DNA of 28,641 bases from Candidatus Velthaea sp. (GCA_050012475.1 JBEKHC010000066.1:1-28641); one strand, 5' to 3'; shown: positions 1 to 18,184, counted from the first letter of the stretch. Notes: a model not told the origin generated them from the sequence alone. Numbers and translations are program-made.

Positions 1-271
1 TGATCGCGTGCGTCGGGCAGAATTGCACGCACAGTCCGCAAAACGAGCATTGGCCGGCGAAGAAGTTCCACGTGATCCCGGTCTCCTGCTCCTCGTTGAA
101 CGAGATCGCTTTGGGCGAGCAGACCGTCTCACAGGCCTTGCAGCCAGTGCACAAGCTGACATCTTGCTCGATCAACCCACGGAATGTCGAAGGCGTCGGC
201 GGCATGTCGTTCGGACGCCGCGTCCGTGTGCGGCGACCGAAATTCTCCCAGACAATGCGAAGAATGCCCAT
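1..271 (-). CDS. NuoI/HycF/CooX-like 2x[4Fe-4S] subunit of the membrane complex (3' end runs off the window)
   Basis: Not in the ORF track. Manual translation from ATG 271 (GGGAG upstream): MGILRIVWENFGRRTRTRRPNDMPPTPSTFRGLIEQDVSLCTGCKACETVCSPKAI...GQCSFCGLCVQFCPTHAI. It has an FRG motif and two CxxCxxCxxxC(P/S) motifs. Confidence 0.9.
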   Translation of the reverse strand, partial: MGILRIVWENFGRRTRTRRPNDMPPTPSTFRGLIEQDVSLCTGCKACETVCSPKAISFNEEQETGITWNFFAGQCSFCGLCVQFCPTHAI

Positions 272-282
272 GTGCTGCTCCC

Positions 283-1194
283 TCAGCCGATGACCGCGGC
301 AACCATTGCAGCGGCCGCGGCCAACCCGCCCCAGACCCAATAAAATCGAAATGCCCGCTTCACCGTAAGCCGCGCGGTCGTGGCGGCGGCCAGTGTAACG
401 AGCACGATCAAACCGAGGCTGACGAGAAAGTACAGTGCAGCGTTAGCAAGCACGCTGTCCAGGCGCGGCACGAACAGCACAAAAAATGCATTGAACAACA
501 ACACGACTTCAAGCGCATGCGACAATTCAAAGATAGCGAGCGGAGCACTGTTGTATTCGATGTGCGCGCCGGCCACGATTTCCTGTTCGGCATTGGGGAT
601 CGAGAACGGATTGCTCTTCAGACGGGCGGGGACGGCCACGAGAAAAGCGAGCGCGGCCAATGCGGTGACCACACTGAAGGGGGCGGATTGCAGGGAGCCG
701 ATGCGAAAACTGTGGGCATTCTGCGCCATGGCGATCACCGCAGCGAGCAACGGCAGGTTGTAGGCGAGGCCCAGGAGCGCCTCACGCATTGCGCTGACCT
801 GACCGTAGATCGATTGGCTCACATAACCGGCCAGCACGTCGCAAATCACCGGGACTTCGAGCAAATAGAGCAACAAGATGATGTCGCCGGGAAACGACGC
901 GACGGCGTGTCCGGGCACCGGAACGATGACCAACCCGAATACCGTGGCTGCAAGCGCGATGAACGGCAACGCGTAAAACAACGCCGAGTTTACGCCGCGG
1001 GAGACGACGGTTTCTTTGCCCAACAGCTTCACAAAATCGAAAAAGGGCTGGAAAAACGGCGGCCCCCTTCGACCTTGCAGCCGTGCGTTGAGCTTACGCG
1101 CGATCCACAGGTAGAAAAAACCCAGCGCTGCCGAGCCAAGAAGTCCGGGCCACAGGAACACGGCGACGGCATACTGCCAGATCTGCAGCGTCAT
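283..1194 (-). CDS. NuoH/HycD/EchB/CooK-like membrane subunit (303 aa)
   Basis: ARKLNARLQGRRGPPFFQPFFDFVKLLGKE and NPFSIPNAEQEIVAGAHIEY signatures, hydrophobic. Start reassigned to ATG 1194 (MTLQIW...), which overlaps the upstream TGA by 1 bp. Confidence 0.92.
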   Translation of the reverse strand: MTLQIWQYAVAVFLWPGLLGSAALGFFYLWIARKLNARLQGRRGPPFFQPFFDFVKLLGKETVVSRGVNSALFYALPFIALAATVFGLVIVPVPGHAVASFPGDIILLLYLLEVPVICDVLAGYVSQSIYGQVSAMREALLGLAYNLPLLAAVIAMAQNAHSFRIGSLQSAPFSVVTALAALAFLVAVPARLKSNPFSIPNAEQEIVAGAHIEYNSAPLAIFELSHALEVVLLFNAFFVLFVPRLDSVLANAALYFLVSLGLIVLVTLAAATTARLTVKRAFRFYWVWGGLAAAAAMVAAVIG

Positions 1195-1658
1195 CACTTC
1201 GCTCGCGATTTCTGGTCGGCCGTTTTTCCGTCGGCCAAGAGTTGTGCGGCTTGCGCGACGCCGGCAATGATCAACTGCGGTCGCGGCGGACAGCCGGACA
1301 CCCAGACGTCGACCGGGATGTAGGTGTCCAACGAACCGTCGACGGTCGGACTGCCGGCAAAAACATTGCCGCTCGCCGGGCAAGAGCCGATGGCGACGAC
1401 GGCCTTGGGGCTCGGCATTTGCGCGTAGATCTCAATAACCGCTTGACGCGCGCGCTTCGTCATGGCCCCCGTAACCACCAGAATATCGGCGTGTTTGGGG
1501 CTGCCTTGCCGCAGCATCCCAATCTGCTCACCGTCATAACGCGGGCTCACGCACGGACCGATTTCGATATCGCAGCCGTTACATGAGCCGCTGTTCACGG
1601 CGTAAATCCACGGGGATTTGCGGCGAGAAACGGCGAGCAGCTTGGCGAAGAGGTTCAT
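1194..1658 (-). CDS. NuoB/HycG/EchC/CooL-like Fe-S small subunit (154 aa)
   Basis: C-terminal part of ORF 1194..2750, start at ATG 1658 (MNLFAK). Motifs GSCNGCDIE, SPKHADILVVTG, QMPSPKAVVAIGSC, PVDVWVSGCPPRP. The CxxC form (not the tandem CC of NuoB) is typical of group-4 hydrogenase/Ehr small subunits. Confidence 0.93.
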   Translation of the reverse strand: MNLFAKLLAVSRRKSPWIYAVNSGSCNGCDIEIGPCVSPRYDGEQIGMLRQGSPKHADILVVTGAMTKRARQAVIEIYAQMPSPKAVVAIGSCPASGNVFAGSPTVDGSLDTYIPVDVWVSGCPPRPQLIIAGVAQAAQLLADGKTADQKSRAK

Positions 1659-1669
1659 AACGTGTGCCC

Positions 1670-2848
1670 CTACCGCGCCATCGCCAGCGGACTTGGTACG
1701 ATCGCCCGGGTTAGGACGCTCGGATAACACCCCAGCAGGATTGCCGCGACAGCGAAGAGCGTCAACACGCCTGGCGCGAGAAAGGAAATCCGGGCACCGG
1801 TAAGAGCAATCTGCGCCGGTCCGAGCCACGTGCGGTGAATAGCGCGCGCGTAACACAGCAGGTCGAGCGCCGCGGCCGCGAGCAGGATGGCGATCAGGGC
1901 CGGCCCTCCGAACTGCGAGGCGGCAACATAAATCCGCCAATACCCCCCAAAACCGAAGCCGGGCGGGATGCCGATGAAGCTCAGCGCGCCGACGATGAAC
2001 GCCGCGCTGGCCAGCGGCAACCGTGCGCCGAGCCCACTGGTGTTGAGGGTAACGGTGCGACCGATCCGCGCCTCGGCCAGACCGACGGCACCGAAGAGGA
2101 TGACCTTGGAAAGCGCGTGACTGAGCGCGCCGATCCAGGCGCCGGGCAGGCCCGATCCGCCCGCGATGAGCCCCAGGAGCAGAAATCCGAGATCCGCGAT
2201 GGTGGAGAACGCCAGCATCCGTTTGAGTTCGGTCTGGGCCAGGGCGAGCAGCGCACCGCCGAACATCGAGATCACCGCAACGGCCATCCAGACCGCAGTG
2301 TGTCCGGTGAAGACCCACGGCGAGAGCTGGCGAATCGTCGCAAGTTCGGCGAAGGTTGCAATATCCACCACCGACACGATCAGCGCGGTCGTCATCGGCG
2401 CGGCCGCCGCGGCCACGGCCGGCAGCCAAAAGTAAAACGGGATCAGCCCAAGCTTCAAGGCAAAGCCGACAATGACGAGGCAGACGACCAGACCTTCGAC
2501 CGCCGGTGCGGGTCGGTTTCCACCAACGGCCGCCATCGAAGCAAAGGCGATTAGCGTGCAAGCAATCGCGGGAAGGATCGAGTACAGGTACGCGCGCGCG
2601 GCCGCTGCGGCTTCCTCGGTCGCGTGCGACCAGACGAGCGCGACGCCGGCAAGTTCCGCCAGATCCAACGCTATCGTGCGGGCCAGTGAATCGCCGGCCA
2701 GTTCCCCCGTAATGACGAGCGCAACGATTGCCGTTGCAAGCCCCCACCACGCTCGGCCGCCCTGCGGAACCGAAACGGCAAACAGCCCGATCCCCAGCGC
2801 CAGTGCGGCCGAAAAGCCGACAGAAATGAGCTCCATCTGGGCGCTCAT
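1670..2848 (-). CDS. Antiporter-like (NuoN/NuoM/HyfF/MrpD family) membrane subunit, short form (392 aa)
   Basis: GFALKLGLIPFYFWLP, QTELKRMLAFSTIADLG, HALSKVILF, SFIGIPPGFGF. ATGA-type 4-bp overlap with the upstream gene. Confidence 0.88.
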   Translation of the reverse strand: MSAQMELISVGFSAALALGIGLFAVSVPQGGRAWWGLATAIVALVITGELAGDSLARTIALDLAELAGVALVWSHATEEAAAAARAYLYSILPAIACTLIAFASMAAVGGNRPAPAVEGLVVCLVIVGFALKLGLIPFYFWLPAVAAAAAPMTTALIVSVVDIATFAELATIRQLSPWVFTGHTAVWMAVAVISMFGGALLALAQTELKRMLAFSTIADLGFLLLGLIAGGSGLPGAWIGALSHALSKVILFGAVGLAEARIGRTVTLNTSGLGARLPLASAAFIVGALSFIGIPPGFGFGGYWRIYVAASQFGGPALIAILLAAAALDLLCYARAIHRTWLGPAQIALTGARISFLAPGVLTLFAVAAILLGCYPSVLTRAIVPSPLAMAR

Positions 2849-4701
2849 AGCAGCGACACCGCGACGAACAGCACAGCCGCGGTCACCAGGGCGGTGAGCG
2901 CCGGTTGTCGCTCGAGCCAGCTGGTCGCGAACCGCCCAACATTGACGGCGCCCTGCCGTATCTTACGCCAAATCGCAAAATAGAGCGGATCAGGGTCCAA
3001 GGCATAGACCGGCTCGAACGCGTCCTCCGCCATGTGAGCGAAATCCGCTGCCCCCAGCGTGTCATCGTCGGGCAGATTCTCCCCGCCGCTGAAAACCGCC
3101 ACCCGCTGTGCTGCCAGCGGCTTTCGCACGAGGCGATATGCACCGACGCCGAACAGGACCGCAAGCGCCAGTCCCGCTGCTGCGCCCAGGGTAACCCCGA
3201 TCGACCCGCTGTCGGTGAGGATCCCAAGCCACGTCACCTGGATCTGCTGGCCGAAACCGAGGGCGCGCACGGCCGGTTCGATGACCGGCCCGATCATGAG
3301 TTGTGGCGCAAAGCCGAACACGAGGCAAAGCCCGCCGGTGATCGCCATGCCGACCAGCATGGTGGGCGACGCCTCGTGAACCTCCTCGGCGCAAAGCTCG
3401 CGCGACGGAATGCCGTAGAACACGTTGACCGTCGCCTTCAAGAACGAAAAAGTCGTGATCAGGCTGACCGCCCAGGCGACGACGACGACCACCGCCTGAT
3501 TGGCGTCGAGCGCCGCATTGAACAGCAACCACTTGGCCACGAATCCGTTTGTCAACGGCACGCCGACGATCGAAGCGGCGGCGGCCAGCCAGACGTACGT
3601 CGTTACCGGCATGCGCGCGCTCAAGCCGCCGAGTTTCTGCATGTCGCGGGTCCCCGTCGCGTGCTGCACCGCGCCGGCGCACATGAACAGCGTCCCTTTG
3701 AACAACGCATGACTGGCCGCATAGAAGAGGCCCGCGGCGACACCCAGACTCGTGCCCAGCGCCAGACCCGTCACGACATAGCCGAGCTGACTAACGGTAT
3801 GAAAGGCGAGCAGCCGCTTCAGGTCGGTTTGGGCCATCGCGAAAACGACTCCGATGAGCATCGTCAGGCAGCCGATCACCAGCAGCACATGGCCGAGCGC
3901 GGCATGCCATGGCCCGATCGAGTACATGCGCGCAATCAGATACGCTCCGGCCTTGACATAGCAGGCCGAGTGCAGCAGCGCCGAAACTGGCGTCGGCGCA
4001 TTCATTGCCTCGGGGATCCACGAATGCAGCGGGTACATGACCGACTTGGCCATAGCCGCTACGATCATCAACAGGGCAATGGCACCGGAAAACGCCGCTG
4101 CGACGCCCGGATCCGTCCACATGAACGTCCCGGTTCGAACGAACAGCAGCATGATGGCGGCGAGCAGCCCATAACCGGCAAGGTGGGTGATGATCAACAC
4201 CTTGCGCGAGCCGTCCGCGGCGGCTTGCTGCTTGTACCAAAAGCCCACCAAGAAATAGGAGCACAAGCCGATGAGTTCCCACGCGAAGTAGGCCATCAGC
4301 AGATTCGAGGTACATACCAGCACCACAAAACCCGCGATGAACAACAGCATCAGCACGTAGAAACGCGTGGTGCCCTCGGTCTCCGCTTCCATGTATCCGA
4401 CGGAATAGAGCAGGATCAGCGAGCCCATCCCGGTGCCAAGCAGCATGAAAAGAATGCTGAGGCCGTCGACGTGATAGGTCAGCGGTACGCCGGCGTCCCA
4501 ATCGAACCAGGTCGCCGTCAGGACTTCCCCGCCGATGACCGCCGGCATCATTGCCAGGACGGCCACCAGCGCAAGCGAGGTCGTCAGAAACGCCAGCCAC
4601 CCCTTGACTGCCCGCGACAGCATCCCGCCGAGGACGATCTGCAGCAGGGCCCCAGTGAATAAGACGCCGGTCGGGACGAAAGCCGGGTTGATCGATGTCA
4701 T
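2845..4701 (-). CDS. Antiporter-like (NuoL/MrpA/HyfB/EchA family) membrane subunit (618 aa)
   Basis: WELIGLCSYFLVGFW, KSVMYPLHSWIPEAMNAPTPVSALLHSA, QTDLKRLLAF, HALFKGTLF, GVPLTNGFVAKW. Starts 3 bp after the moaD stop. Confidence 0.93.
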   Translation of the reverse strand: MTSINPAFVPTGVLFTGALLQIVLGGMLSRAVKGWLAFLTTSLALVAVLAMMPAVIGGEVLTATWFDWDAGVPLTYHVDGLSILFMLLGTGMGSLILLYSVGYMEAETEGTTRFYVLMLLFIAGFVVLVCTSNLLMAYFAWELIGLCSYFLVGFWYKQQAAADGSRKVLIITHLAGYGLLAAIMLLFVRTGTFMWTDPGVAAAFSGAIALLMIVAAMAKSVMYPLHSWIPEAMNAPTPVSALLHSACYVKAGAYLIARMYSIGPWHAALGHVLLVIGCLTMLIGVVFAMAQTDLKRLLAFHTVSQLGYVVTGLALGTSLGVAAGLFYAASHALFKGTLFMCAGAVQHATGTRDMQKLGGLSARMPVTTYVWLAAAASIVGVPLTNGFVAKWLLFNAALDANQAVVVVVAWAVSLITTFSFLKATVNVFYGIPSRELCAEEVHEASPTMLVGMAITGGLCLVFGFAPQLMIGPVIEPAVRALGFGQQIQVTWLGILTDSGSIGVTLGAAAGLALAVLFGVGAYRLVRKPLAAQRVAVFSGGENLPDDDTLGAADFAHMAEDAFEPVYALDPDPLYFAIWRKIRQGAVNVGRFATSWLERQPALTALVTAAVLFVAVSLL

Positions 4702-4704
4702 CTG

Positions 4705-4977
4705 CTATCCGCCGCCGACCGGCGGGAATATGACGACCGTGTCAGCCGGAGCCAGCGGCGTGTTGAAACGCTGGAGGTGGCGCACGTCGTGCCCGTTGAC
4801 GAGAACGATGACGAGGTCCCACAGATCGCCGTCCTTGATCACCCATCGTTCGAACGCGTGCCCGTACTGCGCCACCAGGTCGCGCAGCAAATCCCCGACG
4901 GTCGCCTCCCGCTGCTGCCAGTCCTCCTCTTTCTTGCCCGTGACATCCCGGAGGACTGCGAAGTATTGAACTTTCAT
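4705..4977 (-). CDS. moaD: MoaD/ThiS/SAMP-type ubiquitin-like sulfur carrier (90 aa)
   Basis: MKVQYFAVLRDVTGKKE...VLVNGHDVRHL...VIFPPVGGG with C-terminal GG. Start at ATG 4977 after GGAG/AAGGTGG; lies directly behind aor. Confidence 0.85.
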   Translation of the reverse strand: MKVQYFAVLRDVTGKKEEDWQQREATVGDLLRDLVAQYGHAFERWVIKDGDLWDLVIVLVNGHDVRHLQRFNTPLAPADTVVIFPPVGGG

Positions 4978-5011
4978 ATCCACCTTCGCTCCTCCGGCTG
5001 TCCCGGTCGTG

Positions 5012-6823
5012 TTATGCGGTGGTGAGTCCCAGCTCCCCGAGCTTTGCCTGGGTCGGCACCCCATTCTCATCCCAGCCGCGAAGCTCGTAATAGGCCGGCA
5101 GCATCTCGGGCAGCCGGCTGAGCATCCCCTTCGATGCGCCCGTTTTGATCGGCTCCTTCAACAGCCGAGGGGGGAGCGCATCATCCTTCGCGGTCAAGCC
5201 GGCACTGAGGTTCCACTGTCGTTCCAGGTTCCAGATGCGATCACCGCATTTCATAAACTCGGCAGTCGTGTACTCGACGCCCGTAAGCGTGCTGAGCATC
5301 TCGGCAAGCTCGTCTGCACCAATCCCAAACGTGGTGAACAGGCACGCCCCGGTGGAGTCGAGCGCAGCAGTCAGATTCTGAAACAGGATTACCAGCGCCG
5401 GCTTGCCCTCGATCGTGTCCTTATCGACCTTCATCGGCACGCCGAGCACCTCCGGCGAGATCGTGTAACCGCGAACATGTGCGGCGCCACCGTTCGCCGT
5501 GGCATAGTTCAATCCGATACCTTGGACTGCGCGCGCGTCGTAGGCCGGGATCTCCTGCTTCTTGACGCTCATCGACAGCTCCGGACGGCCGAGCGAGTCG
5601 GCAAGCCGGTACGATCCGACACCGAGTTTCTTGCCGAAGCCTTCACCCTTGCCGGTAAGCCGCGTGACCTCGACCATGGCCTCGGCGTTGCCCCACTCGA
5701 GAGCAATACCGCCGGTGTCCTCGCGGGTGATCAGCCCCTCCTCATACAGTTCCATTGCACAGGCGACCGTGGCGGCCATCGAGATGGCGTCCATGCCGTA
5801 TTCGTTACACAGGTAATTGGCTTTGGTGACCGCATCGAGATCGTCGACGAAACAGTCACCGCCAAAACCCCAAGCGGTTTCGTATTCGGGGCCCTCGCCT
5901 TCACCGGCGTATTTTTTGTTGCTTACCTTGGTGACGCGGCCGCACGAGATGATGCAAGAGAAGCAGCCCTTGGGCCGTTGCAGCAGCGTTGCGGCCAGGG
6001 TCTCGCCGCCGATCTTGTCGGCGGTGGGAAAATACCCATCCTGGAAATTCTTGGTCGGATAACCGCCGACCTGATTGAGAATGTTGGTCAGCACGTTGGT
6101 TCCGTAGAGACGCAGTCCCGTTCCGCCGACCGGGTGCTTCTGAATTTTGTCACGCGCTTTGATGACAGCGCTTTCAAAGGTCTTGGGATCGGCGCAACTC
6201 ACCGCGCCCGTTCCGACGACGGCGACTGCCTTCAGATTTTTCGAGCCCATGACTGCGCCCGGACCGCTCCGTCCGGCGGCGCGGTGCAGGTCGTTCATGA
6301 TGCACGCGAACAAGACGCGGTTTTCGCCAGCCGGACCGATGCAGGCGACCTTGGCATCGTCGTCGGTCTCCGCGCGGATGGCATCCGTCGTATCCGGAAC
6401 CGTCTTGCCCCACATAGCCGCGGCATCGCGAATTTCGACCGTCTCGTTGCGAATCCACAAATACACGGGCTTGGGCGCCGCGCCCTCGACGATCAACGCA
6501 TCGTAGCCGGCGAATTTCAGTTCAGGCCCCCACACGCCGCCCGAATTCGAGGCGGCGATGGCTCCTGTCAGCGCACCTTTCGTGACAACATTGTAGCGGC
6601 CGCCCGAGGGAGCGTAGGTGCCCGTCAGGGGGCCGGGCACGAAGATCAGCTTGTTTTCCGGAGACAGCGGATCGACTTTCGGATCGACCTCGTCGGTCAT
6701 GATCTTGGTGCCGAGACCGCGAGCGCCGATATAGTCTCTGGCGACGCTGGGATCGAGCGCTTCCGTCGAGACCTTGCTGGTCGACAAATTCACCCGAAGA
6801 ATTTTACCGATCCACCCATTCAT
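5012..6823 (-). CDS. aor: Tungsten-dependent aldehyde:ferredoxin oxidoreductase, catalytic subunit (603 aa)
   Basis: MNGWIGKILRVNLS, YIGARGLG, GPELKFAGYDA, RAAGRSGPGAVMGSKNLKAVAV, CFSCIISC, GPEYET, CNEYGMDAIS, DSTGAC, YYELRGWDENGVPT. Full-length open frame. Confidence 0.96.
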   Translation of the reverse strand: MNGWIGKILRVNLSTSKVSTEALDPSVARDYIGARGLGTKIMTDEVDPKVDPLSPENKLIFVPGPLTGTYAPSGGRYNVVTKGALTGAIAASNSGGVWGPELKFAGYDALIVEGAAPKPVYLWIRNETVEIRDAAAMWGKTVPDTTDAIRAETDDDAKVACIGPAGENRVLFACIMNDLHRAAGRSGPGAVMGSKNLKAVAVVGTGAVSCADPKTFESAVIKARDKIQKHPVGGTGLRLYGTNVLTNILNQVGGYPTKNFQDGYFPTADKIGGETLAATLLQRPKGCFSCIISCGRVTKVSNKKYAGEGEGPEYETAWGFGGDCFVDDLDAVTKANYLCNEYGMDAISMAATVACAMELYEEGLITREDTGGIALEWGNAEAMVEVTRLTGKGEGFGKKLGVGSYRLADSLGRPELSMSVKKQEIPAYDARAVQGIGLNYATANGGAAHVRGYTISPEVLGVPMKVDKDTIEGKPALVILFQNLTAALDSTGACLFTTFGIGADELAEMLSTLTGVEYTTAEFMKCGDRIWNLERQWNLSAGLTAKDDALPPRLLKEPIKTGASKGMLSRLPEMLPAYYELRGWDENGVPTQAKLGELGLTTA

Positions 6824-6827
6824 GGCC

Positions 6828-7301
6828 TTACTCCGAGAAAGCGTTCTTGAACTTCTCCGAAAATGCGCGTTTGCGCTTGCGCGTCGCGGTCAGGTCGTCG
6901 ACCCATTCGATTGCCTGAGTCGGGCAGAATTTCGCGCATGCGGGGTCACCGTCGCAATAGTCGCATTTGAACACCTTCTGCGTTTGTTCATCCCAGATCG
7001 CATTGCCGAACGGGCACGCCTGGACACACATTTTGCAGCCGATGCATTTGGCTTGGTCGAGGTCCACCCAGCCGGAAGCGGAGTCCCGGGTCAACGCGTG
7101 CGGCGTGCAAACCGGGATGCACGGGGCGTCCCGACAATGCTGACACATCATCGGGACGGAAAAGCCTTCGCGCTCCCAAGTATAGACGTGAACGCGGGTC
7201 GCATCGGGGCGGAAGACGCCCTCATGCGTCATCGAACATGCTAGTTCACAATTGTGGCACCCGGTACATTTGTCCGCACTGATCATCAGCATCTTGGCCA
7301 T
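6828..7301 (-). CDS. Four-cluster [4Fe-4S] electron-transfer subunit (AorA/CooF/DmsB-like, 157 aa)
   Basis: CTGCHNCELAC, CQHCRDAPCIPVC, CIGCKMCVQACP, KCDYCDGDPACAKFCP. AGGAG upstream; ends 4 bp before the aor start. Confidence 0.93.
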   Translation of the reverse strand: MAKMLMISADKCTGCHNCELACSMTHEGVFRPDATRVHVYTWEREGFSVPMMCQHCRDAPCIPVCTPHALTRDSASGWVDLDQAKCIGCKMCVQACPFGNAIWDEQTQKVFKCDYCDGDPACAKFCPTQAIEWVDDLTATRKRKRAFSEKFKNAFSE

Positions 7302-7437: not shown

Positions 7438-7704
7438 GCTGCGCGGGCCAATGGTCGAGGATCACCGCGCTGATCATGAAACCTTGGCTACTCGGCTCAC
7501 GACCGGACATTCCAGCGTATTACCTCAATTCCTGGACGAAATCCGAGCTGATCCGTCACCGAAAACCGTGCCGATCGAACTGCCGTTGCGTGATTTCCGA
7601 ATTGCTAGACGGCGACTGAAGAGTTGGTCGGCAATGTCGGCACGAAGCGTCCTCGGCGTTGCTTCGGGATGTCGCGTCGGACCGGCGCCGGCGCCGGCGC
7701 CGAA

Positions 7705-8089
7705 TCGGCGACGCGGACGTCGCCGGCGGACGATGCGTCGTAGCCGCCGAGCGCCTCGATCGCTGCGTGCAGCGCCGGCTCGTGCATCGCCGAACACGGC
7801 GAGTTCGTAATGGTTCGGTCGCCACCCGCACGAAGTCGCAGCCCAGCGCGAGCCGGCGCGTAAATGCCCAAGCCGCGCTGCCGTCCGTCAGACATGATCA
7901 TGAGGCGACGACAGCGCGGGCGAACACCGGTTGTGCCGTCACACGATCGAGCGCATCGCCGAGCACGATCTGCTCGACACCGTTATTGCGGGCGGAGGCG
8001 CGGTCGAGTGCGGCATTCCAGCATCCTTACGCTTCTTCGAGCGGGATGTCGATGAGAAACGGTCCGTGGCTGAAGCGATGTTCGCTCAC
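7705..8089 (-). pseudogene. moeA: Relic of a MoeA + periplasmic-binding (PBP/LysR-substrate) domain fusion gene with a large internal deletion
   Basis: Read across stops and frameshifts from GTG 8089: VSEHRFSHGPFLIDIPLEEA*...EQIVLGDALDRVTAQPVFAR/LSSPHDH (MoeA N-terminus), joined directly to GLGIYAPAR/ALGCDFVRVATEP/YELAV/LHAAIEALGGYDASSAGDVR (PBP-domain C-terminus). Confidence 0.8.
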
Positions 8090-8290
8090 GAAACGATCAC
8101 GCGAACGGTCGCGACCCGCCGCGAGGCCGCTTCGATCGAGCGGCACGACGACGGGGCGCCAAGCGACTACAAGCGCGCTGGCCTGGCTGGCTGCAAACCG
8201 ATAACCGGCTTCCGACCGGCGAAAGCCACGAGGGTCGTCCCCGGCTTGATCGCAATGCCATGGACCAAGGATACCGGCCCGGCCGATTGT
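8086..8290 (-). pseudogene. moeA: Relic of a gephyrin-like MoeA (molybdopterin metal insertase)
   Basis: IGRAGIL/VHGIAIKPGTTLVAFAGRKPVIGLQPARP/ASALVVAWR matches HGIAIKPGKP...PVIGLPGNPASAL. It is followed by VVVPLDRSGLAAG/TVRVIVS*, whose TGA overlaps the GTG of the next relic. Confidence 0.78.
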
Positions 8291-8368: not shown

Positions 8369-9040
8369 TCAGCGTACAAGGCGTGATTCGGCAACAAGTG
8401 CCTCGAGATACCGGTTTTGGCTCGTGTCGATGTCGCCGGTATCCAACGTCTGGACGGATCGTCCATTTTCGAGAACCATCGCTTTCTTGCAAAGCGTGGC
8501 GACGTCTATGAGATTTTGCGTTGCGAGGACCAGCGTGCAACGGGATTCTGCCAGATAATCGCCCACGAGCTGACGCAGAGCTGGGCGACCGTCCGCATCG
8601 ACGGTTGCGAACGGTTCATCAAGGAACAGCGCCTGCGGCTCAATCGCCAGCGCACGCGCTAACGCGAGACGTTGGCGCTGACCCGATGAAAGCCGCCGCG
8701 CATCGAGGTCGAGCGCGTCGCCCAGAGCGACGCGCGAAAGCAACTTCTTTGCTCGCTTCCGAGCTGTTCGCTCGTCCAGCCCGATCACCGCACGCGCGAT
8801 CGCGGCTACATTCCAAAGCACCGATCCACGCAAAACCGCGGGCTGCGCAAACACACCGGCACACCGTTTGGGTCGATCAACAACTCCATCGTAAGGAATC
8901 AGTCCTTGCAGAACAAGCAAGAGCGTCGACTTGCCGGCTCCATTGCGTCCAAGAAGCGCCGTACCATTCGTGCCGGCGTCGAACGCGTCGATCGCGAGAT
9001 GAAACTGGCCGCGCCGAACGCTGATTCCGCGAGCGTTCAT
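8369..9040 (-). CDS. tupC: Tungstate ABC transporter ATP-binding protein (TupC-like)
   Basis: Walker A GRNGAGKST, signature LSSGQRQR, Walker B LFLDEP. ATG 9040 overlaps the tupB TGA. The H-loop reads ATQN rather than ATH. Confidence 0.8.
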   Translation of the reverse strand: MNARGISVRRGQFHLAIDAFDAGTNGTALLGRNGAGKSTLLLVLQGLIPYDGVVDRPKRCAGVFAQPAVLRGSVLWNVAAIARAVIGLDERTARKRAKKLLSRVALGDALDLDARRLSSGQRQRLALARALAIEPQALFLDEPFATVDADGRPALRQLVGDYLAESRCTLVLATQNLIDVATLCKKAMVLENGRSVQTLDTGDIDTSQNRYLEALVAESRLVR

Positions 9041-9335
9041 CGCCACCGAGCTTGCAGTACAAGCGTGCCGCCGGCAACGATTACGACGATGCCGAGCAAA
9101 ACGGCGACATCGGCGAACGCGGCACCGAAACGGCCTCTGCTCACCTCCAGCATCGTCGCGGTCGTAAGCACCCGCGTTTGTCCTTCGATGTTGCCGCCGG
9201 TCATCTGCGCAGCCCCAACCTCCGCGATCGCGCGTCCGAAGCCGGCCAACGCCGCAGCAAGAAGTCCGGGAATGGTCTCACGCGCGAGCAGGCGGAGACG
9301 GCTTCGCGCTGGCACCGTTAGGGCGGCGAGCGTTC
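9037..9335 (-). pseudogene. tupB: TupB-like permease, C-terminal ~95 codons only
   Basis: LLAAALAGFGRAIAEVGAAQMTGGNIEGQTRVLTTATMLEVSRGRF is the TupB C-terminal signature. The frame abuts the tupA stop at 9339, leaving no room for the N-terminal half. Confidence 0.82.
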
Positions 9336-9338
9336 GTG

Positions 9339-10172
9339 TCAGCGCGTTTGGGCACCGCTTAGTGCATTTTGGGCGTCGGCGTTGAACAGCGGCCGGCCGA
9401 AGCGTTCCTTACCGAAAAGCGCGATAATGTGCTGGCCTTCGGGTGACACGATATATCTTGCGAAAGCCTCCGCTCCGGCAAGATTCCCAACGCGCCCAGC
9501 GATCGGTTTCACGACGATGACGTGATAGATGTTCCGAAGGTCAGTCGCCCCTTCTGCATAAGGAGCCAGATCGAGCGTCGAACGTTGCGCAAGATACGTT
9601 CCGTCATCCGTTAGCGTGTAGGCTGCCTTTTGCGAGGCGATGTGCAGGGTGTCGCCCATGCCGCTGCCCGACTTGATGTACCATGCGCCTTGCGGTGTGA
9701 TGCCGGCGGTGGACCAAAGGTCGAGTTCTTTTTTGTTGGTCCCGGAATCGTCAGCACGCGAGACGAACGGTGCGCCTGCGGCGGCAATGTGCCTGAAGGC
9801 GTCGACAGCCGTCGCCGTACCACGCACGTTCGCTGGATCGTTGGGTGGTCCGACAATGATGAAATTGTTATGCATGACGAGTTCGCGACTAAGGCCCCGG
9901 TCATCGGCCATGTACGTTTCCTCAGCTTTCGGAGCATGAACGAGGAGCACATCGGCGTCACCCTTCTCACCCATGGCCAAGGCCGCTCCCGTGCCGACGG
10001 CGATGGTCTTTACTTTGTAGCCCGTCGATGCCTCAAAGGCCGGAACCAGGACGTCGAGGAGCCCAGTGTCTTGAGTGCTCGTCGTCGTCGCCAAGATGAC
10101 TGCTGGACCGTTAGCGGCGGAAGCCGGCAGAAAAACCGACAGCAAGAGGGCCAACAAGAATAAGCACTTCAT
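9339..10172 (-). CDS. tupA: Tungstate-binding periplasmic protein TupA (277 aa)
   Basis: Signal peptide MKCLFLLALLLSVFLPASAA, then ILATTTSTQDTGLL, AVGTGAAL...GDADVLLVHAP, FVSRADDSGT, AYTLTDDGTYL. The TTTS motif is characteristic of TupA. Confidence 0.92.
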   Translation of the reverse strand: MKCLFLLALLLSVFLPASAANGPAVILATTTSTQDTGLLDVLVPAFEASTGYKVKTIAVGTGAALAMGEKGDADVLLVHAPKAEETYMADDRGLSRELVMHNNFIIVGPPNDPANVRGTATAVDAFRHIAAAGAPFVSRADDSGTNKKELDLWSTAGITPQGAWYIKSGSGMGDTLHIASQKAAYTLTDDGTYLAQRSTLDLAPYAEGATDLRNIYHVIVVKPIAGRVGNLAGAEAFARYIVSPEGQHIIALFGKERFGRPLFNADAQNALSGAQTR

Positions 10173-10279
10173 GGCGCACAACATTGTTGCCAAGGGCGAG
10201 GTTACCCCGCCCAGATTCAACCCGTAATCAAGTCGGTCTCAGGAAGCTTCAGTTTTTCCGCGAAAAATCGCCTCCGCCT

Positions 10280-10906
10280 CTACCCGTTGCGCCCGTAGAA
10301 GGGCCTTTCTCCCGACGCATGGTCCGTTGTGTCCACGATTTCGACGATCTCCGGTGCGACCCGGCGCACCATGACCTCGACCCCGTGGCGCAGCGTCACT
10401 TGCGAGGCCGCGCATCCTTGGCATCCGCCACTCATGGTGATAAACAGAGTTCCTTCGCGGACGTCAACGATCGAAATCTGTCCACCGTGAGCAGCGATGG
10501 AACGGTTGACTTCCCGGTCAAGCAGTTCTTGAACGACCGCCCGAACCTCGGCGTCGACTCGCCCGCCCGAGCTGACCTTGAGCGGGGTCTCGAGAACGGT
10601 CGGCGCGCCCGTGAGCAGAAGCGCCCGGATGGCGCTTCCGACTGCCGATTTCAATCCCGACCACGAGGCGCTCGACTCTTTTCCGACCGTCACGACATTC
10701 TCGCTGACTAGGACATAGGCAACGCCCGGGAGTGCGAACAGCCGCTCGGCCAGGGGCGAGCCGGCAGCTCGTTCCGGGTTGTCAAAGAAGAACGGGCCAC
10801 CGGGATGCACAGCCCGGCTCACGGTGAATTTGCACGTGTCGGGGTCGGCGAGCAGCGTCTCGGCGCGAATTGCAATCGTCGCGTCGACCGGCATGACTTC
10901 AGACAT
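10280..10906 (-). CDS. Nfu/NifU-type Fe-S scaffold (Nfu_N + NifU-C domains)
   Basis: GSPLAERLFALPGV (Nfu N-terminal domain) and VNRSIAAHGGQI...MSGGCQGCAASQVTLRHGVE...IVDTTDHASGERPFY. Confidence 0.9.
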   Translation of the reverse strand: MSEVMPVDATIAIRAETLLADPDTCKFTVSRAVHPGGPFFFDNPERAAGSPLAERLFALPGVAYVLVSENVVTVGKESSASWSGLKSAVGSAIRALLLTGAPTVLETPLKVSSGGRVDAEVRAVVQELLDREVNRSIAAHGGQISIVDVREGTLFITMSGGCQGCAASQVTLRHGVEVMVRRVAPEIVEIVDTTDHASGERPFYGRNG

Positions 10907-12149
10907 CTTCGACGATCCTCGCGGCGTTGAGGTCTCCGAAATCGCGCAGATAATCGAACGAATAGATTCCGGTGCTATGGCCGTCGTTCCAGTTGATCGC
11001 GACGGCGTAATTGCCTACGCTGGCGATCGTGTTGGGAACCACGTCGGGACGTACGCTCTTCGGATCCAGGAGGGGCTGCCCGCTCATCTCCTCCACGCAC
11101 AAAGCGCAACGGCACGCTAACCGAAGGTCGCGAACGTCGAAGTCGTCTTGGTGCCCGTCTTCCCAAAGCACGGACAGCGTTCGCGCATCTCTCCGGCGAA
11201 AGCCGACCGCCGTCGTGCGAGAGCCCGATGGCCCGGCCGCACTCTTTAGCCAGTCCGGCTCGCCATCGCCTGTTTCCCAAGTCCATGCGAACGGCGGTAA
11301 CGCCGCTGTTCTGGGCTGCCCCTCGAGTCGGTCCGTAACTGCAGCGGCAAGGCGCAGGTACGCCTGCCCTGCGAAGGAGATGGGCTTGTCGAGGACGATC
11401 GGACGGCCTTCGTCCCCGCTGGTGACAATCTCGGCGTCGAGAGGAATTCCACCCAAGAACGGTACCCCGAGCTGACGGCTCATCCGCTCGCCGCCGCCCT
11501 CGCCAAAAACGTTCGTTCCCTTGTTGCAGTGCGGGCAGATGAACGCGCTCATGTTCTCAACGATGCCGAGAATGGGGACGTGCACCGTCTCGAACATCCG
11601 CAAACCGCGGCGGGCGATCTTGAGACTGACCTCCTGCGGCGTCGTCACGATAACCGCGCCCGACAAAGGAAAACTTTGTGCAAGCGTCAGCTGCGTGTCG
11701 CCTGTCCCGGGCGCGAGGTCCAGGATTAGGTAGTCCAACTGGCCCCACTGCACGTCGTCGATGAACATGCGCAGGTACTTGCTGACCATTGGCCCACGCA
11801 GGATGGCCGGACTGTCATCCCCGGTAAGCATGCCCATCGACACGACTTTGAGTCCGTAGCGTTCCGCAGGCATGAGCTTGCCGTTGGGGTACATCTCCGG
11901 CCGCCCAGCGGGGAGCCCAAGCATAACGGGGATGCTGGGGCCCAGGACGTCCGCGTCAACGAGCCCGACCCGGGCGCCGGTCTCCTGCAGCGCAACAGCG
12001 AGGTTCACGCTGACGGTGGACTTCCCCACGCCGCCCTTGCCGCTGCCCACCGCGATGATATGCTTAATTCCCGGCAGCTTTTCTGGAGCACCGGAAGAAT
12101 GGGACGACGCGCTTTCCGCACGGCCATCGGCCGGATTGGTGGTTTGCAT
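10899..12149 (-). CDS. mrp: Mrp/ApbC/NBP35 Fe-S carrier ATPase fused to a C-terminal DUF971 (GBBH-like N) domain
   Basis: GSGKGGVGKST, LRGPMV, DLAPGTGD, VTTPQ, ENMSAFICPHC; C-terminal WEDGH...LRLACRCALC...VGNYAVAINWNDGHSTGIYSF. Start at ATG 12149 after GAGGGA. Confidence 0.92.
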   Translation of the reverse strand: MQTTNPADGRAESASSHSSGAPEKLPGIKHIIAVGSGKGGVGKSTVSVNLAVALQETGARVGLVDADVLGPSIPVMLGLPAGRPEMYPNGKLMPAERYGLKVVSMGMLTGDDSPAILRGPMVSKYLRMFIDDVQWGQLDYLILDLAPGTGDTQLTLAQSFPLSGAVIVTTPQEVSLKIARRGLRMFETVHVPILGIVENMSAFICPHCNKGTNVFGEGGGERMSRQLGVPFLGGIPLDAEIVTSGDEGRPIVLDKPISFAGQAYLRLAAAVTDRLEGQPRTAALPPFAWTWETGDGEPDWLKSAAGPSGSRTTAVGFRRRDARTLSVLWEDGHQDDFDVRDLRLACRCALCVEEMSGQPLLDPKSVRPDVVPNTIASVGNYAVAINWNDGHSTGIYSFDYLRDFGDLNAARIVEDV

Positions 12150-12419
12150 GCTTGAGATCCCTCGCTTCGGCCCGTCTGATACGCTTCGGCCCGGCTGATA
12201 GGATCGCCCCTGCCTCACTTTTCGAATCGAGCGCACAGTCAAGGCGGACGTTGCGCCAACGCTACCCGGACGCTGCGCCTAGCACTCAACTCGTTATCCT
12301 TCACGAGCCCCGCCGCAACCAGCATCACCTTCGCTGCTTCGATTGTGACCGTCCGACATTGATCAACACTGTTACAGCGATCGCAGGCACGCCCGGCGAG
12401 TACGGGCAAATACCGCCGC

Positions 12420-13430
12420 ATGATCGATTTGATCCCGCAGGTAGCGCCGCTGGCGGATCAATTCAACCGACCGATCACGTACCTCCGGGTGTCGGTCACC
12501 GATCGGTGCAACCTGCGATGCGTCTACTGCATGCCCGAAGCGGGACTTCCCTGGGTGGGCAAGACCGAAATCCTGACGTTCGAGGAGATTACGTCGATCG
12601 TGCGGGCCGCAGCAGCGATCGGCGTTCGCAGTATCCGGCTTACCGGTGGCGAGCCGCTCGTTCGGCGCGACCTGCCGCAGCTTGTGGCGCTGATCGCGAG
12701 CGTGCCGGGCATAGACGACATCGCACTTTCGACGAACGGGCTCCTGCTCGCCCCTCAGATCGACGAGCTGCGTGCTGCCGGTCTGCGACGGGTCAACATC
12801 TCGCTCGACACGTTGTGTCCCGAGCGCTTCCTCGCGATCGCGCGGCGGCCCGGTCTCGACCGGGTGCTCGCTGGGATCGACGCGGCGCTCGCTGTGGGCT
12901 TGGCCCCGATCAAGCTCAATTGCGTCGTGATGCGCGGCCAAAACGACGACGAGCTGATCGCGTTTGCCGAACTCACCCGCAATCGCCGTGTGCACGTCCG
13001 ATTCATCGAGATGATGCCAGTACTCGACAACGTTTTGCTGCAGCGTGATGCGTACGTTTCGGCGGCGGAAATCCTCGACCGGATCCGCGCGCGCGATACG
13101 CTCGTCCCGATTCCCGGTCCGGTCGGCAATGGGCCCGCGCGCTATTTTGCGTTCCCCGAGGCCGCAGGTGCGGTCGGCGTCATCTCTCCGCTATCGCACG
13201 ACTACTGCGAAACATGCAATCGCCTACGTCTCTCAGCCGACGGTCGGCTGCGCTTATGCTTGTTCGGCGATAATGAGATCGATTTGCGCACGCCGGTGCG
13301 CAGAGGTTGTTCTCTGGACGATCTTGCCGCCATCTTCCGCGGCGCGATGTACGTCAAGCCCGAACGTCACCATCTTGATCTCGGCAAGCCCGCCAGCGCG
13401 ATGCGGGCGTTCAGCGAAATCGGCGGCTAA
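12420..13430 (+). CDS. moaA: GTP 3',8-cyclase MoaA
   Basis: YLRVSVTDRCNLRCVYCMP, RLTGGEPL, NISLDTL, RFIEMMP, CETCNRLRLSADGRLRLCL, C-terminal IGG. Confidence 0.97.
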   Translation: MIDLIPQVAPLADQFNRPITYLRVSVTDRCNLRCVYCMPEAGLPWVGKTEILTFEEITSIVRAAAAIGVRSIRLTGGEPLVRRDLPQLVALIASVPGIDDIALSTNGLLLAPQIDELRAAGLRRVNISLDTLCPERFLAIARRPGLDRVLAGIDAALAVGLAPIKLNCVVMRGQNDDELIAFAELTRNRRVHVRFIEMMPVLDNVLLQRDAYVSAAEILDRIRARDTLVPIPGPVGNGPARYFAFPEAAGAVGVISPLSHDYCETCNRLRLSADGRLRLCLFGDNEIDLRTPVRRGCSLDDLAAIFRGAMYVKPERHHLDLGKPASAMRAFSEIGG

Positions 13431-13916
13431 CGATCGCCGACGACCGGTGCGGTCAATCGCCGGGTCAATAAAAGGCCGAAGAGCAAGAAGCTCTGCGCGT
13501 CGGCGGTCTTTAGCGCGAAGCAAGGTGCTGCAGGTCGCCGTCGAAATCGACTGTCAACCCCCGTGATATCAGTTAATTGCTCGTTTGCGTCGTCGATCAG
13601 CGGTGCGGTCTTCGGCTGCGCCGTCGCCGCGAACGAGTGCTGCGTCGACTCCGAAAAACGAAACGCCGTTGCGACTGGTTTTCTTGCTGTGGTACATCGT
13701 TCATGGGACAGCGCCACGCCGCTTCCCGACGCGCGAGTTGCACGCGAGGGACCGCGGCTGGTCAGCCCACCGCGCAATGCGCTTCGAACCCGGCTCCTCA
13801 AACGGCCCCTCCCTGCACGACTGTGCGTCGAACCCCAGTTTGGAAACAGCACTTCGAATCCTACAGGCTCCTGCGAGCACAGAACTTCTCCGCGGCGTGC
13901 TTTCGCAACAGAACCA

Positions 13917-14615
13917 TCAGGAGCGCTTGCTCGGTATGAGGGCCTGAACGTACGCGCGTGTGCGTAATATCACCGAGAGGAACGAGATGCCAAGGCGAGC
14001 TCGCAAATACAGGCACAAGTACGGGATGACGAAGCTCTGCGCTGCCCAGAGTTCCTGCTGCGACAGTGCTTTGCTGGTTTCCACATCGGGCTGCTCCTTG
14101 CGGGCGCCGTCGGCAAGCGGGATTCCCACGGGTGCTAACGTCCAGGTGACGATCTCGCCGTCAAACGGCTCAGGTCGCATCCCAACGGATCGGGCGAGGT
14201 TGCTGAACGCCCCGTTCTGCACGAGCGCGTAGGCGACCACGGACGTGCGGCGGCGTTGTCGCAACGCGGCGATGAGCCGGTCGAACAACAGTCGTCCGAC
14301 ACCGACACGTCGAGCGTCGTTCGCGACAACCATAGCGATTTCTGCACACACCTCATCGATGAAAAACGCGTGCGCGACGCCGAGCGGCCGACTATGCTGC
14401 TCGGCGATCAGCCCTAACACGTCAGGGCTCGCTTGCACGTAGCGACCTACCGCGTCGTCGTCAAAGTGATCGACGGCGTGAAAGAAGCGGCAACAACGAT
14501 CCTCAGCGCTCGTCCGCTGCAGGATGCTGCGATAGTTGTCGGCATCGCTCGGGACGATCGCGCGTACACTAACGACGTCGAGTAAATGTGCCATGCTGTT
14601 GAAGGCGTTTTCCAC
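13917..14615 (-). CDS. GNAT-family N-acetyltransferase
   Basis: SAEDRCCRFFH, CAEIAMVVANDARRVGVGRLL (acetyl-CoA-binding motif A), ALVQNGAFSNLARSVGM. AGGAG upstream of GTG 14615; alternative start ATG 14594. Confidence 0.8.
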   Translation of the reverse strand: MENAFNSMAHLLDVVSVRAIVPSDADNYRSILQRTSAEDRCCRFFHAVDHFDDDAVGRYVQASPDVLGLIAEQHSRPLGVAHAFFIDEVCAEIAMVVANDARRVGVGRLLFDRLIAALRQRRRTSVVAYALVQNGAFSNLARSVGMRPEPFDGEIVTWTLAPVGIPLADGARKEQPDVETSKALSQQELWAAQSFVIPYLCLYLRARLGISFLSVILRTRAYVQALIPSKRS

Positions 14616-15051
14616 CGGGTCTCGACTCCTTGGATTCTACTGTTCGGAATATAGGCACGCCCTATTAAAAAGGCAGTTTCGCATGTGTGCAAATTTGGCC
14701 GTATAGCCGTTGGTTTTGCTTTAACCTTGCGCTGCATCCCGCGATTTTGCGCCTTCCCGCGTTCGCGCGCGATGTCCGCACCAGATGGTCGGCGAGTCAT
14801 GCGCTTGGGGTTGCGGGCGCGAAGTTTCGGCGGCAATGAAGGCGGAATGTTACATACAACGCCCCAGCACCTCGCGAGTGCACCGCAATCGTTGCGTTGC
14901 GTTGGCCTGCACCTCCGAGCGTGAGCGCAGCCCGAGTCGGCGACTGTTGTGCTTCCCAGCGGCGATATCGTCGCCTTGGATGCGGTCCCGCTGGCCGATT
15001 CGCGATGCCGCGCTCTGGCCGCGGCCGATTCGTCAAGAGCCAAGCGTGCTG

Positions 15052-15426
15052 CTACGACACGATGGGTTGCTCAGAGCCAACGATACGCTGAAATATGCTT
15101 GTGCCGCCGCCGACGGCTTCGGCTGGATCCCGCGGATCGATCGTCCGGTCGTCGTCGCGCTCCTCGCCTGACGAAGGGTACGAACGAGACGATACAAGGA
15201 TGAATTTCTCCGGGAACGTGAATCTCACGCCGAGTTGCTCCATTTCGCGTAGCACGCTCATAATAAGCGGCAAATCCGTGAATCCGCTCTTAGAAAGACT
15301 TTTGCCAAACTGCGCGTTCAAATCGTCAATGCGTGTGTGGGTATTCGATTGCGCCTCAGCCGCCGTCGCGCATTGGCAGATGTACGTATAGCACTTCGCA
15401 CATTGGTCACTCTCGCGGCTGGTCAT
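15052..15426 (-). CDS. Hypothetical protein with N-terminal CxxC-x4-CxC; the 3' end may be chimeric
   Basis: GAGGAAGG 8 nt before ATG 15426 (MTSRESDQCAKCYTYICQC...); AT-rich region upstream. No family recognised. Confidence 0.45.
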   Translation of the reverse strand: MTSRESDQCAKCYTYICQCATAAEAQSNTHTRIDDLNAQFGKSLSKSGFTDLPLIMSVLREMEQLGVRFTFPEKFILVSSRSYPSSGEERDDDRTIDPRDPAEAVGGGTSIFQRIVGSEQPIVS

Positions 15427-15660
15427 CGCTGATACCTTCCTCACACGTTCTGAGCGGGTTGTGCCGAGCATGACGATACGATTGTTGCCCGATAGCTTTC
15501 GGGACCATTTCGGACATTGCTTTTGGACATATGAACACTTAGGTAATGATTAAGGACGAGATTATCACATCGTCAAGCGACGCCACGCCGTACAGGTAAT
15601 CCGACATCCGCGGAATCGGGGCGCTCAAGAAAGATATTTGTTAATACGAAGGTTCTTCGA

Positions 15661-16355: not shown

Positions 16356-16461
16356 ATGCACAGTTGCGATCCGCCGCCCGAAGCCGGAAAAGCCGACACC
16401 GCAGATCCCAGTGAACGACCCCGAGGCTGCGGCGCTGGCGTTGGCCGACATGAAAAGCGCC

Positions 16462-17313: not shown

Positions 17314-17583
17314 GAGCGCGAAAGACGAGTTCGGGGACCTAACGGCGACGACCCGTGCAACCCTCATCGCTGGTATCTTCAACGGCCCCTCGTCGGATGA
17401 GCGGTTCGCTCAATAATGAGTCGTTCACTGATGTCCTCAGCCACGTGGCGACTGCACCCAATAAGCTTTGAGAGTGGGCGGGAGTGGCCATGGCGCGCAA
17501 AGAGAACGTGGAAGAGCAACGCGGATCACCGCTACGACTGCCAGTGAGCACCCGCTTCGTAGACGTACGAGACGCATATCGCC

Positions 17584-17870: not shown

Positions 17871-18184
17871 GCGCGGCTATTCGCCCGAGGCCATCGGTCA
17901 CTACTACGTCGACGAAGACAGCTGGTGCGCGGCAAGGACGGGACGGAATACACCATCGCCGAGGGCTGGCATACCGTCGTCGGCGCTCTCACGCTCGACG
18001 GCAAGGACCTGCGCGACGTTGCGGTGACCTTGACGGCGACTTCGGACGACGGCACGCGGGTCTACGTGCCGCGGAAGATCGACTTCACCGAGCTCGCCGA
18101 GGGTGTAGGGTTCCACGCACAGTCGTGGCGTGCGTGGCCATTCCTGGCAACCGTTATCGCTGAGTGCTGACGGTGTGCGCCCAA

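Follow-up and report, generated by a model that had tools for sequence, protein, structure and literature searches.

A tungsten aldehyde oxidoreductase encoded with a group 4 [NiFe] hydrogenase in Candidatus Velthaea sp.: a candidate aldehyde hydrogenlyase

The HydDB table gives formate and CO as the dedicated dehydrogenase inputs of group 4 [NiFe] hydrogenases. In formate hydrogenlyase (FHL) of Escherichia coli (FdhF-HycBCDEFG, subgroup 4a, PDB 7z0s) a pterin dehydrogenase feeds the hydrogenase through a four-cluster protein docked on a NuoI-like tail, and the Coo hydrogenase (subgroup 4c; CooS-CooF-CooMKLXUH) shares the input scheme of a dehydrogenase plus a 4x[4Fe-4S] protein. H+ pumping has been demonstrated for purified Ech2 of Thermoanaerobacter kivui (PMC9356269). 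Here we describe an operon at positions 1-7301 of a 28,641-nucleotide stretch of Candidatus Velthaea sp. (GCA_050012475.1 JBEKHC010000066.1:1-28641), hereafter the window, in which the genes for a tungsten aldehyde oxidoreductase (AOR), WorL, and its Fe-S partner, WorS, precede those of a membrane-bound, hydrogenase-like module. The closest solved relatives of WorL and WorS, WorABCSL of Acetomicrobium mobile (9mqx) and AorABC of Aromatoleum aromaticum (8c0z), share the aorA-aorB order with moaD-like genes and a WorS nanowire helix, and they deliver electrons to soluble flavin modules (NAD+, ferredoxin), whereas the predicted outlet here is a membrane [NiFe] hydrogenase. The locus encodes a known type of machine, in which a four-cluster wire joins a dehydrogenase to a group 4 hydrogenase, but no description of its particular input was found.

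No characterised complex of an AOR with a group 4 hydrogenase was found in the literature searched, subscription papers being largely outside its reach. In the available part of its text, the five-class scheme of tungsten oxidoreductases (WORs) of 2026 (PMC13328260) includes no hydrogenase-linked class, and 'Ech' and 'MBH' have 0 occurrences. Feng et al. 2025 (PMC12318220) list an uncharacterised 'U type', 2% of 444, in which clade-87 WorSL genes stand upstream of membrane complex-I-like genes; the passage calls the partner a 'quinone-related dehydrogenase' and says nothing of a hydrogenase, a Ni motif, docking or a Mop variant. The same upstream arrangement is seen in the window, and the 'U type' is probably the present family. 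A reading made earlier from the sequence alone (the sequence-only reading) knew of no biochemically characterised example; the earlier genomic mention that it allowed for probably exists.

The window is the entire contig C66 of a genome of 204 contigs (94% complete), and its minus-strand operon is truncated at base 1. Eight minus-strand open reading frames (ORFs), all open, are separated by 4, 34, 3, -4, 11, -1 and 11 bp, exactly as first described. The first, worS/aorA (6828-7301), encodes a 4Fe-4S dicluster protein with 16 Cys, recognised by domain search, PDB search and an alignment of 23 sequences. It is followed by worL/aorB (5012-6823), encoding the tungsten AOR of 603 aa with an intact active site (PF02730, AFOR_N, and PF01314, AFOR_C), and worX/moaD (4705-4977), encoding a ThiS/MoaD sulfur carrier of 90 aa with a GG C-terminus (TIGR01687 over cut-off). 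The membrane module begins with A1 (2845-4701), a NuoL/EchA-like antiporter subunit of 618 aa found by profile searches that has all charged pump residues, and A2 (1670-2848), a short NuoM/N-like antiporter-like subunit of 392 aa with ~11 hydrophobic segments and atypical axis residues. C (1194-1658) is a NuoB/EchC-like hydrogenase small subunit with four cluster Cys (NF005012 over cut-off), in which the SCNGC noted earlier was confirmed as GSCNGC; B (283-1194) is a NuoH/EchB-like membrane subunit with ~8 hydrophobic segments (PF00146); and F (1-271) is a NuoI/HycF-like ferredoxin subunit, 172 aa in relatives, truncated by the contig end. Subunit letters, helix numbers and the HydDB-style labels of unnamed outgroup loci were assigned from gene context and convention.

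Because the window spans the whole contig, the assembly breaks off within the operon, and no sequence is assembled on C66 left of base 1, where the sequence-only reading proposed to look for NuoC- and NuoD-like genes. Both genes occur in relatives, and a search of the genome with the proteins of relative L013 recovered the C-terminus of the large subunit, E, on contig C190 (C190:3019-2915). This contig begins with the final 35 residues, ending in DPCLSCTDR-stop and 97% identical to L013, and continues with moeB/thiF and then a cysteine desulfurase; relatives have these genes in the same order, at ~80% DNA identity. From this collinearity we infer that C66 and C190 are adjacent, with ~1.7 kb (the remainder of F, the whole of D and most of E) in the assembly gap between them.

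Gene spacing suggests that the operon forms a single transcript. A terminator scan gave no hairpin at the moaD/A1 junction, although it says little because it returned 6 sites against 8.9 in shuffled sequences. A search for FNR- and sigma-54-like boxes in 12 upstream regions gave a single FNR-like match, in L017. On relative L015, a wetland metatranscriptome (X1, word share 0.05) yielded 319 short contigs touching 28 of 30 bins, 242 of which were <90% alike; among the pieces listed none spans moaD/A1, and the run may contain DNA, so that these data speak neither for nor against co-transcription. At L024:1762-4111 and in 15 other Anaerolineae loci, worS is immediately preceded by genes for a NarX/NarL-like sensor kinase and response regulator, and this pair likely regulates the operon.

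Dozens of genomes share the ten-gene order worS-worL-moaD-A1-A2-C-B-F-D-E, and for this reason the arrangement is not chance. A linkage scan of species-representative genomes with the small subunit as sole seed returned 45 loci; five from Bacillota, at 47-48% identity, were excluded as differing in architecture, with three antiporters and a large subunit that is extended, and 40 were kept in the clade. These 40 share A1-A2-C-B-F-D-E as far as their contigs extend. The conserved synteny that the sequence-only reading set as a check was borne out upstream of A1, into which 31 loci extend: 29 carry a tungsten AOR, 1 a Mop-type enzyme and 1 an Fe-S gene alone at the contig edge. The unit is found in Pseudomonadota, Chloroflexota, Spirochaetota, Methylomirabilota and Myxococcota from soil, peat and digesters, with cultured carriers in Azospirillum and Anaerolineaceae. 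All five Azospirillum plasmid loci hold the ten genes with an adjacent hypA, and Azospirillum lipoferum 4B has two copies of the unit (AZOLI_RS20605-20560 and RS26810-26765). The hydrogenase family is patchily distributed, with 20 carriers among 151 sampled genomes of Anaerolineaceae (the family of Longilinea arvoryzae), 0 among 400 other genomes of the class Alphaproteobacteria, 0 among 401 Bacillota and, at in-clade identity, 0 among 200 other genomes of the class Anaerolineae. AOR and large-subunit distances co-vary over 31 loci (Spearman 0.76, 0/2000 permutations), as expected for linked genes.

The motifs of the large subunit identify the module as a group 4 [NiFe] hydrogenase rather than an Ehr-type complex or complex I. 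All 39 full-length large subunits of relatives have E[R/H]VCGIC (R in 32, H in 7) and, near the C-terminus, DPCxxCxDR, at which the protein terminates, and all 39 keep an Arg that aligns with the canopy Arg of HycE; in the Velthaea genome itself only the C-terminal Ni motif, on C190, is assembled. These four Ni-binding Cys show that the family is neither Ehr nor complex I, in which a NuoD-like subunit would lack them; the Ehr-type alternative had been raised for just such a subunit. The best PDB match of E is MbhL and the best structure matches are hydrogenases, while the best NCBIfam matches are NuoD/FpoD models, every one below cut-off. The remainder of the group 4 subunit set is present as a one-cluster small subunit with conserved cluster Cys (C26, C29, C93 and C123) and NuoI-, NuoH- and antiporter-like subunits, the NuoC-like gene being seen in relatives only. 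In A1, E142, K219, H244, H331, K335 and K390 are invariant in the 43-45 of 50 alignment rows that cover them, the remaining rows being uncovered; in A2, K132, D162, H244, K248 and R305 occur in 50/50 rows. Maturation genes, which the earlier reading had listed as a check, were recovered: hypB-F are present in the Velthaea genome away from the operon, with hypA just below cut-off, and hyp genes lie directly upstream of the operon in L013, L017, L021 and L022.

Against 1.8 billion representatives clustered at 50% identity, the large subunit had one full-length match at 61%, with all remaining full-length matches at <=48%. In quick and LG+G4 trees with context-labelled outgroups, the family forms one clade (100/99) apart from six-subunit Ech and FHL, with Coo-type enzymes as sister at moderate support (94/79); when more representatives were added the clade held at 100 and the sister was unresolved. 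The wider group that contains this clade and Coo (Shimodaira-Hasegawa approximate likelihood-ratio test 94) also takes in representatives that lack both Cys motifs and are probably NuoD/FpoD-like, a placement possibly relevant to the origins of complex I. Five further Anaerolineae loci (L096, L098, L106, L107 and L108) form a group 4 clade with the C-terminal motif DLCIxC in place of DPCxxC.

The described enzyme most like the module in gene content is T. kivui Ech2, assigned to subgroup 4g (PMC9356269), a subgroup that the HydDB table describes as loosely clustered. Ech2 has the same eight-part set, with A1 of 69 kDa, A2 of 43 kDa, B-F plus a 4x[4Fe-4S] protein, together with the same run A1-A2-C-B-F with two separate antiporters, as compared through locus tags and published text (PMC9356269; PMC4320612); A2 matches Ech2A2 (42.6 kDa) in size. 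It differs in that its cluster holds no dehydrogenase gene, HycB2 stands in for WorS, D-E come first and ferredoxin is the donor (PMC9356269). We claim a likeness in gene content to the published description, and not membership: the T. kivui gene order was found in 0 of 40 outgroup loci, and no T. kivui record was among the matches listed in a cluster look-up and an A2 homologue search (120 of 360). Coo is the nearest context-labelled group in the trees and shares a ~360-aa large subunit without C-terminal extension and a long F with a Cys quartet, whereas CooM is one ~1,285-aa protein in place of two genes, the input is CooS/CooF, and the large subunits are 43-47% identical to those described here and fall in separate clades. 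Membership in Coo (4c) was rejected on these grounds: there is no fused CooM and no cooF/cooS input, and the large subunit lies outside the Coo clade. E. coli FHL differs in its DMSO-reductase-family Fdh input, fused C/D parts with a C-terminal extension, and single antiporter, and its large subunit is ~37% identical. FHL (4a) was likewise rejected, the operon having no fdh and E (359 aa) ending ...DR, as was classic six-subunit Ech (4e), which has one antiporter, a short F without docking tail and the order ABCDEF. The module is not of the Coo or FHL kind to which it had at first been compared; it forms a clade apart from these, and its subunit set is that of T. kivui Ech2.

WorL has the features of an aldehyde-oxidising WOR, namely its two domains, four cluster Cys for a [4Fe-4S] cluster, and active-site residues T242, E315, Y428 and H449, which correspond to T243, E313, Y427 and H448 of PfAOR. 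Its best PDB matches are 9mqx_D, 1aor, 9g7j and 8c0z; the solved enzymes nearest to it are aldehyde oxidoreductases, and the top solved matches include three enzymes assigned to clade 87. Neighbouring TupA/WtpA genes suggest that tungsten is the metal. The Fe-S protein, first thought to be CooF-like, is by its closest matches a WorS/AorA subunit (9mqx_E, E=4e-45; 8c0z_C, E=3e-37), with HycB (7z0s_B, E=3e-24) weaker. In the alignment of 23 sequences it keeps the C-terminal helix that, in homologous WorS/AorA, forms the nanowires of WorABCSL and AorABC (PMC12318220). WOR class V (clade 41), in which WorS carries a Tat signal or a membrane helix, was rejected since WorS here starts straight with its first cluster motif. 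The worX/moaD product probably serves cofactor synthesis rather than being a subunit of the complex, a role taken from PMC13328260.

WorS is the usual partner of bacterial AORs, and its presence alone therefore implies no docking; the case for docking rests on the tail of F, a natural exchange of the dehydrogenase, and a structural model. In relatives, F ends in a CxxC..CxxC quartet and a helix, and the quartet is invariant in 34/34 sequences. The quartet aligns with that of HycF, whose tail contacts HycB (PMC9474812). Among the F genes of 40 outgroup loci it occurs in 7/7 Coo and 1/1 FHL loci, and in 0/32 without a co-encoded 4x[4Fe-4S] gene. WorA recruits WorS by a four-Cys zinc finger and helix (PMC12318220), and the F tail had no sequence match to WorA in the PDB. 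In four Anaerolineaceae genomes (L028, L187, L189 and L192) worL-moaD is replaced by a molybdenum Mop-type aldehyde oxidoreductase (NF045668 over cut-off, PDB match 1sij), which is unrelated to the tungsten enzyme, and all four retain the WorS-clade Fe-S protein and the hydrogenase. The fully annotated locus L028:3573-13415 has the Mop maturation genes yqeB/xdhC/mocA downstream, and Longilinea arvoryzae carries both a tungsten (L040) and a molybdenum version. The carriers form one clade, so the exchange was probably a single event, in which, as judged from gene content, the enzyme family changed while chemistry and wire were kept. In multimer modelling, as proposed earlier, F and WorS of L013 scored 0.75 against 0.25 for the best control, with the interface at F 152-168. 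This mark was reached by 116 of 157 solved pairs and by 2 of 215 that were mismatched; for the alignments made here, both figures hold only approximately. Contacts agree between runs by at least 82%, the partner's predicted local distance difference test score (pLDDT) is at least 83, and WorS sits on the F tail and its clusters. Although the model shows likeness and not binding, these lines of evidence together make direct wiring of WorS to the hydrogenase likely.

We consider it very probable that the operon links aldehyde chemistry to H2 in some manner, and we put the probability of a directly wired, H2-evolving, proton-translocating aldehyde-oxidising complex, an 'aldehyde hydrogenlyase', at roughly 60%. 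The sequence-only reading, which proposed this, is supported overall, with H2 evolution, pumping and direction standing as predictions. In such a complex, which under this reading would be stable, the tungsten site of WorL would convert RCHO + H2O to RCOO-, and two electrons would pass via the WorL cluster to four clusters in WorS, two in F and one in C, and then to the [NiFe] site of E, where H2 would form. WorS would be docked on the C-terminal Cys quartet and helix of F as HycB is on HycF, while B and A1 (perhaps with A2) would pump ~1-2 H+ per aldehyde under anoxia. Metal content, direction, pumping and substrate range are predicted from sequence, and use under anoxia is suggested because the host has complex I, several heme-copper oxidases and other hydrogenases. 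Aldehyde potentials of -520 to -580 mV correspond to a computed energy of -20 to -55 kJ/mol at 1 bar to 10 Pa H2. For benzoate/benzaldehyde, -505 mV against -414 mV for H+/H2 corresponds to -17.5 kJ/mol (PMC9295118). If the proposed complex exists, aldehyde detoxification becomes chemiosmotic energy conservation, peat, soil and digesters hold an unrecognised source of H2, and the one published interpretation of these genes, which makes them a quinone enzyme, is corrected. There is also biotechnological interest in AOR-driven acid reduction, and the presence of a candidate natural H2-AOR complex in mesophiles that have been cultured makes the idea directly testable. A more tentative extension, which we regard as possible though doubtful, is that the F-tail helix nucleates a WorS filament bearing several tungsten (or exchanged molybdenum) heads on one H+-pumping [NiFe] hydrogenase, a third lyase input with its own group 4 lineage that would be reversible, with H2 and membrane potential reducing unactivated acids.

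Several points weigh against the wired complex, which is predicted from sequence and a model. The F-WorS model may pass from likeness because the structure of a homologous pair, HycF-HycB, has been solved. The assembly gap takes in the N-terminal Cys motif of the Velthaea large subunit, A2 lacks canonical pump residues (transmembrane helix (TM) 5 Glu in 24/46 covered rows, TM12 Lys in 1/50), and neighbouring tupB and moeA copies are decaying in this genome, the core genes being intact. In L047 (4632-6446) and L201 (8762-10495) WorL lacks the catalytic Glu and Tyr beside an intact module, and may have an altered substrate or be a dead head; the replacements are G/F in L047 and A/C in L201, and neither locus has a moaD match. 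An AOR-seeded metagenome scan gave 71 loci, 25 at >=66% AOR identity and 46 more distant. Among the 25, 12 precede the module, 4 an fdh-FeS-hyfB (FHL) operon (one of these contigs reveals only fdh), 3 a flavin adenine dinucleotide (FAD) subunit (class III) and 1 neither, with 5 uninformative; the module was found beside 0 of the 46 distant AORs, many of which are on short loci. The exceptions look derived, being nested within the module-linked AOR clade in a FastTree phylogeny, and the scan shows that WorSL is mobile between outlets.

This mobility to FHL and FAD-subunit genes is what would be expected if WorSL were a soluble enzyme of the class II type, co-regulated with an Ech2-like hydrogenase and coupled to it by free ferredoxin or flavodoxin, the hydrogenase serving other ferredoxin reducers too. 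Class II WorSL enzymes do use ferredoxin (PMC13328260), and T. kivui Ech2 uses free ferredoxin despite its HycB2 (PMC9356269), so a HycB-like subunit need not mean a docked dehydrogenase; FdhF is itself only loosely bound to FHL (PMC9474812), and the altered WorL of L047 and L201 is consistent with such an arrangement. We nevertheless consider free coupling unlikely, given that WorS is retained where Mop replaces WorL, that the docking tail of F occurs only beside a co-encoded 4x[4Fe-4S] gene, of which WorS is the sole one in these operons, and that the model places WorS on this tail. The complex could also work mainly in reverse, with H2 and proton-motive force reducing carboxylic acids to aldehydes (and then alcohols), either to dispose of electrons or to detoxify the acids. 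AORs can reduce unactivated acids, the benzoate gap to H2 is ~90 mV (PMC9295118), Ech-type enzymes are reversible (HydDB table), and complex I and several heme-copper oxidases of the host could provide the motive force. In known AORs, however, acid reduction runs at <5% of the oxidation rate (PMC9295118), and group 4 is defined as H2-evolving (HydDB table). No alcohol dehydrogenase was prominent among conserved neighbours in a clustering of flanking ORFs, in which no specific search for one was made, and mainly reverse operation seems quite improbable.

Two alternatives change one end of the electron path. The altered active sites of L047 and L201, and the WORs that oxidise sulfonates or have unknown substrates (PMC13328260), would fit a WorL whose input chemistry has been misassigned and whose substrate is other than a simple aldehyde. 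We hold this to be very unlikely: WorL of the window keeps the four aldehyde-type residues, its closest solved relatives are aldehyde oxidoreductases, and the enzyme that replaces it, Mop, is an unrelated aldehyde oxidoreductase. At the other end, an aldehyde:quinone oxidoreductase, a complex-I- or Ehr-like respiratory enzyme in keeping with the 'U type' wording of Feng 2025, would agree with the database labels of five subunits as parts of NADH-quinone oxidoreductase, with the below-cut-off NuoD/FpoD matches of E and with the one tree that puts sequences without the Cys motifs in the same wider group. It is hard to reconcile with four Ni-ligating Cys in 39/39 large subunits, the GSCNGC small subunit, hypA adjacent in 5/5 Azospirillum loci and best structure matches that are hydrogenases, and we give it almost no credence. 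A wired aldehyde hydrogenlyase is the reading that we prefer.

Upstream of worS, the window holds further genes for cofactor and metal supply. A moeA + moeA-PBP pair, which would serve metal insertion into the cofactor, persists at 7689-8268 on the minus strand as a decayed remnant with an internal deletion, seen as tblastn pieces with stops against relative L116. At higher coordinates, also on the minus strand, lie tupA, a truncated tupB and tupC of a tungstate ABC transporter (8369-10220; NF041772 as best match, below cut-off, and PF00005), tupB having lost ~340 bp of its 5' part near 9330 relative to L116. Fe-S carriers resembling nfuA and apbC/mrp (minus strand, within 10280-13430; profile searches) and moaA (12420-13430, plus strand; TIGR02666 over cut-off) would also supply cofactor. 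L116 is a 92%-identical locus with the moeA pair intact, in which the operon is placed behind tupABC-moeA-moeA.

The operon DNA is up to 82% identical to Alphaproteobacteria loci, the match stopping ~45 bp upstream of worS, and an in-clade large subunit was found in 0 of 150 other genomes of the host class (best 36%; 147 excluding three unpublished). We read these data, with the placement of the operon in L116, as pointing to horizontal gain of the operon. Bin contamination, raised by the absence from these other genomes of the class and by a tetranucleotide profile at the 96th percentile, was judged less likely because in L116 the operon adjoins moeA and tup genes matching contigs C5 (78%) and C115 (71%) of the Velthaea genome, where a related moeA pair and a second tup locus, respectively, are found.

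Among the AOR loci that precede fdh, L119, L121 and L122 (and partly L120) have worS-worL-moaD directly before fdh, a second 4Fe-4S gene and hyfB-like genes; the AORs of L119-L122 are 81-82% identical and the contigs stop short of the large subunit. This arrangement in L119, L121 and L122 has the layout of a combined aldehyde and formate hydrogenlyase operon. In the rest of the window, most ORFs checked at 13400-20450 had no Pfam match, and 20697-27817 encodes a TonB-dependent receptor-like protein of 1,207 aa, a protein of 858 aa that weakly matches Trans_reg_C, and a TonB C-terminal protein, genes that are unrelated to the operon. Elsewhere in the genome, two further group-4-like operons were seen, one at C39:5182-12416 whose large subunit lacks the second Cys pair at its end (Ehr-like) and one at C28:20616-27182 whose large subunit has non-canonical motifs, and a second, distant AOR-family gene (31% identity) lies beside a moeA pair at C5:21775-26900.

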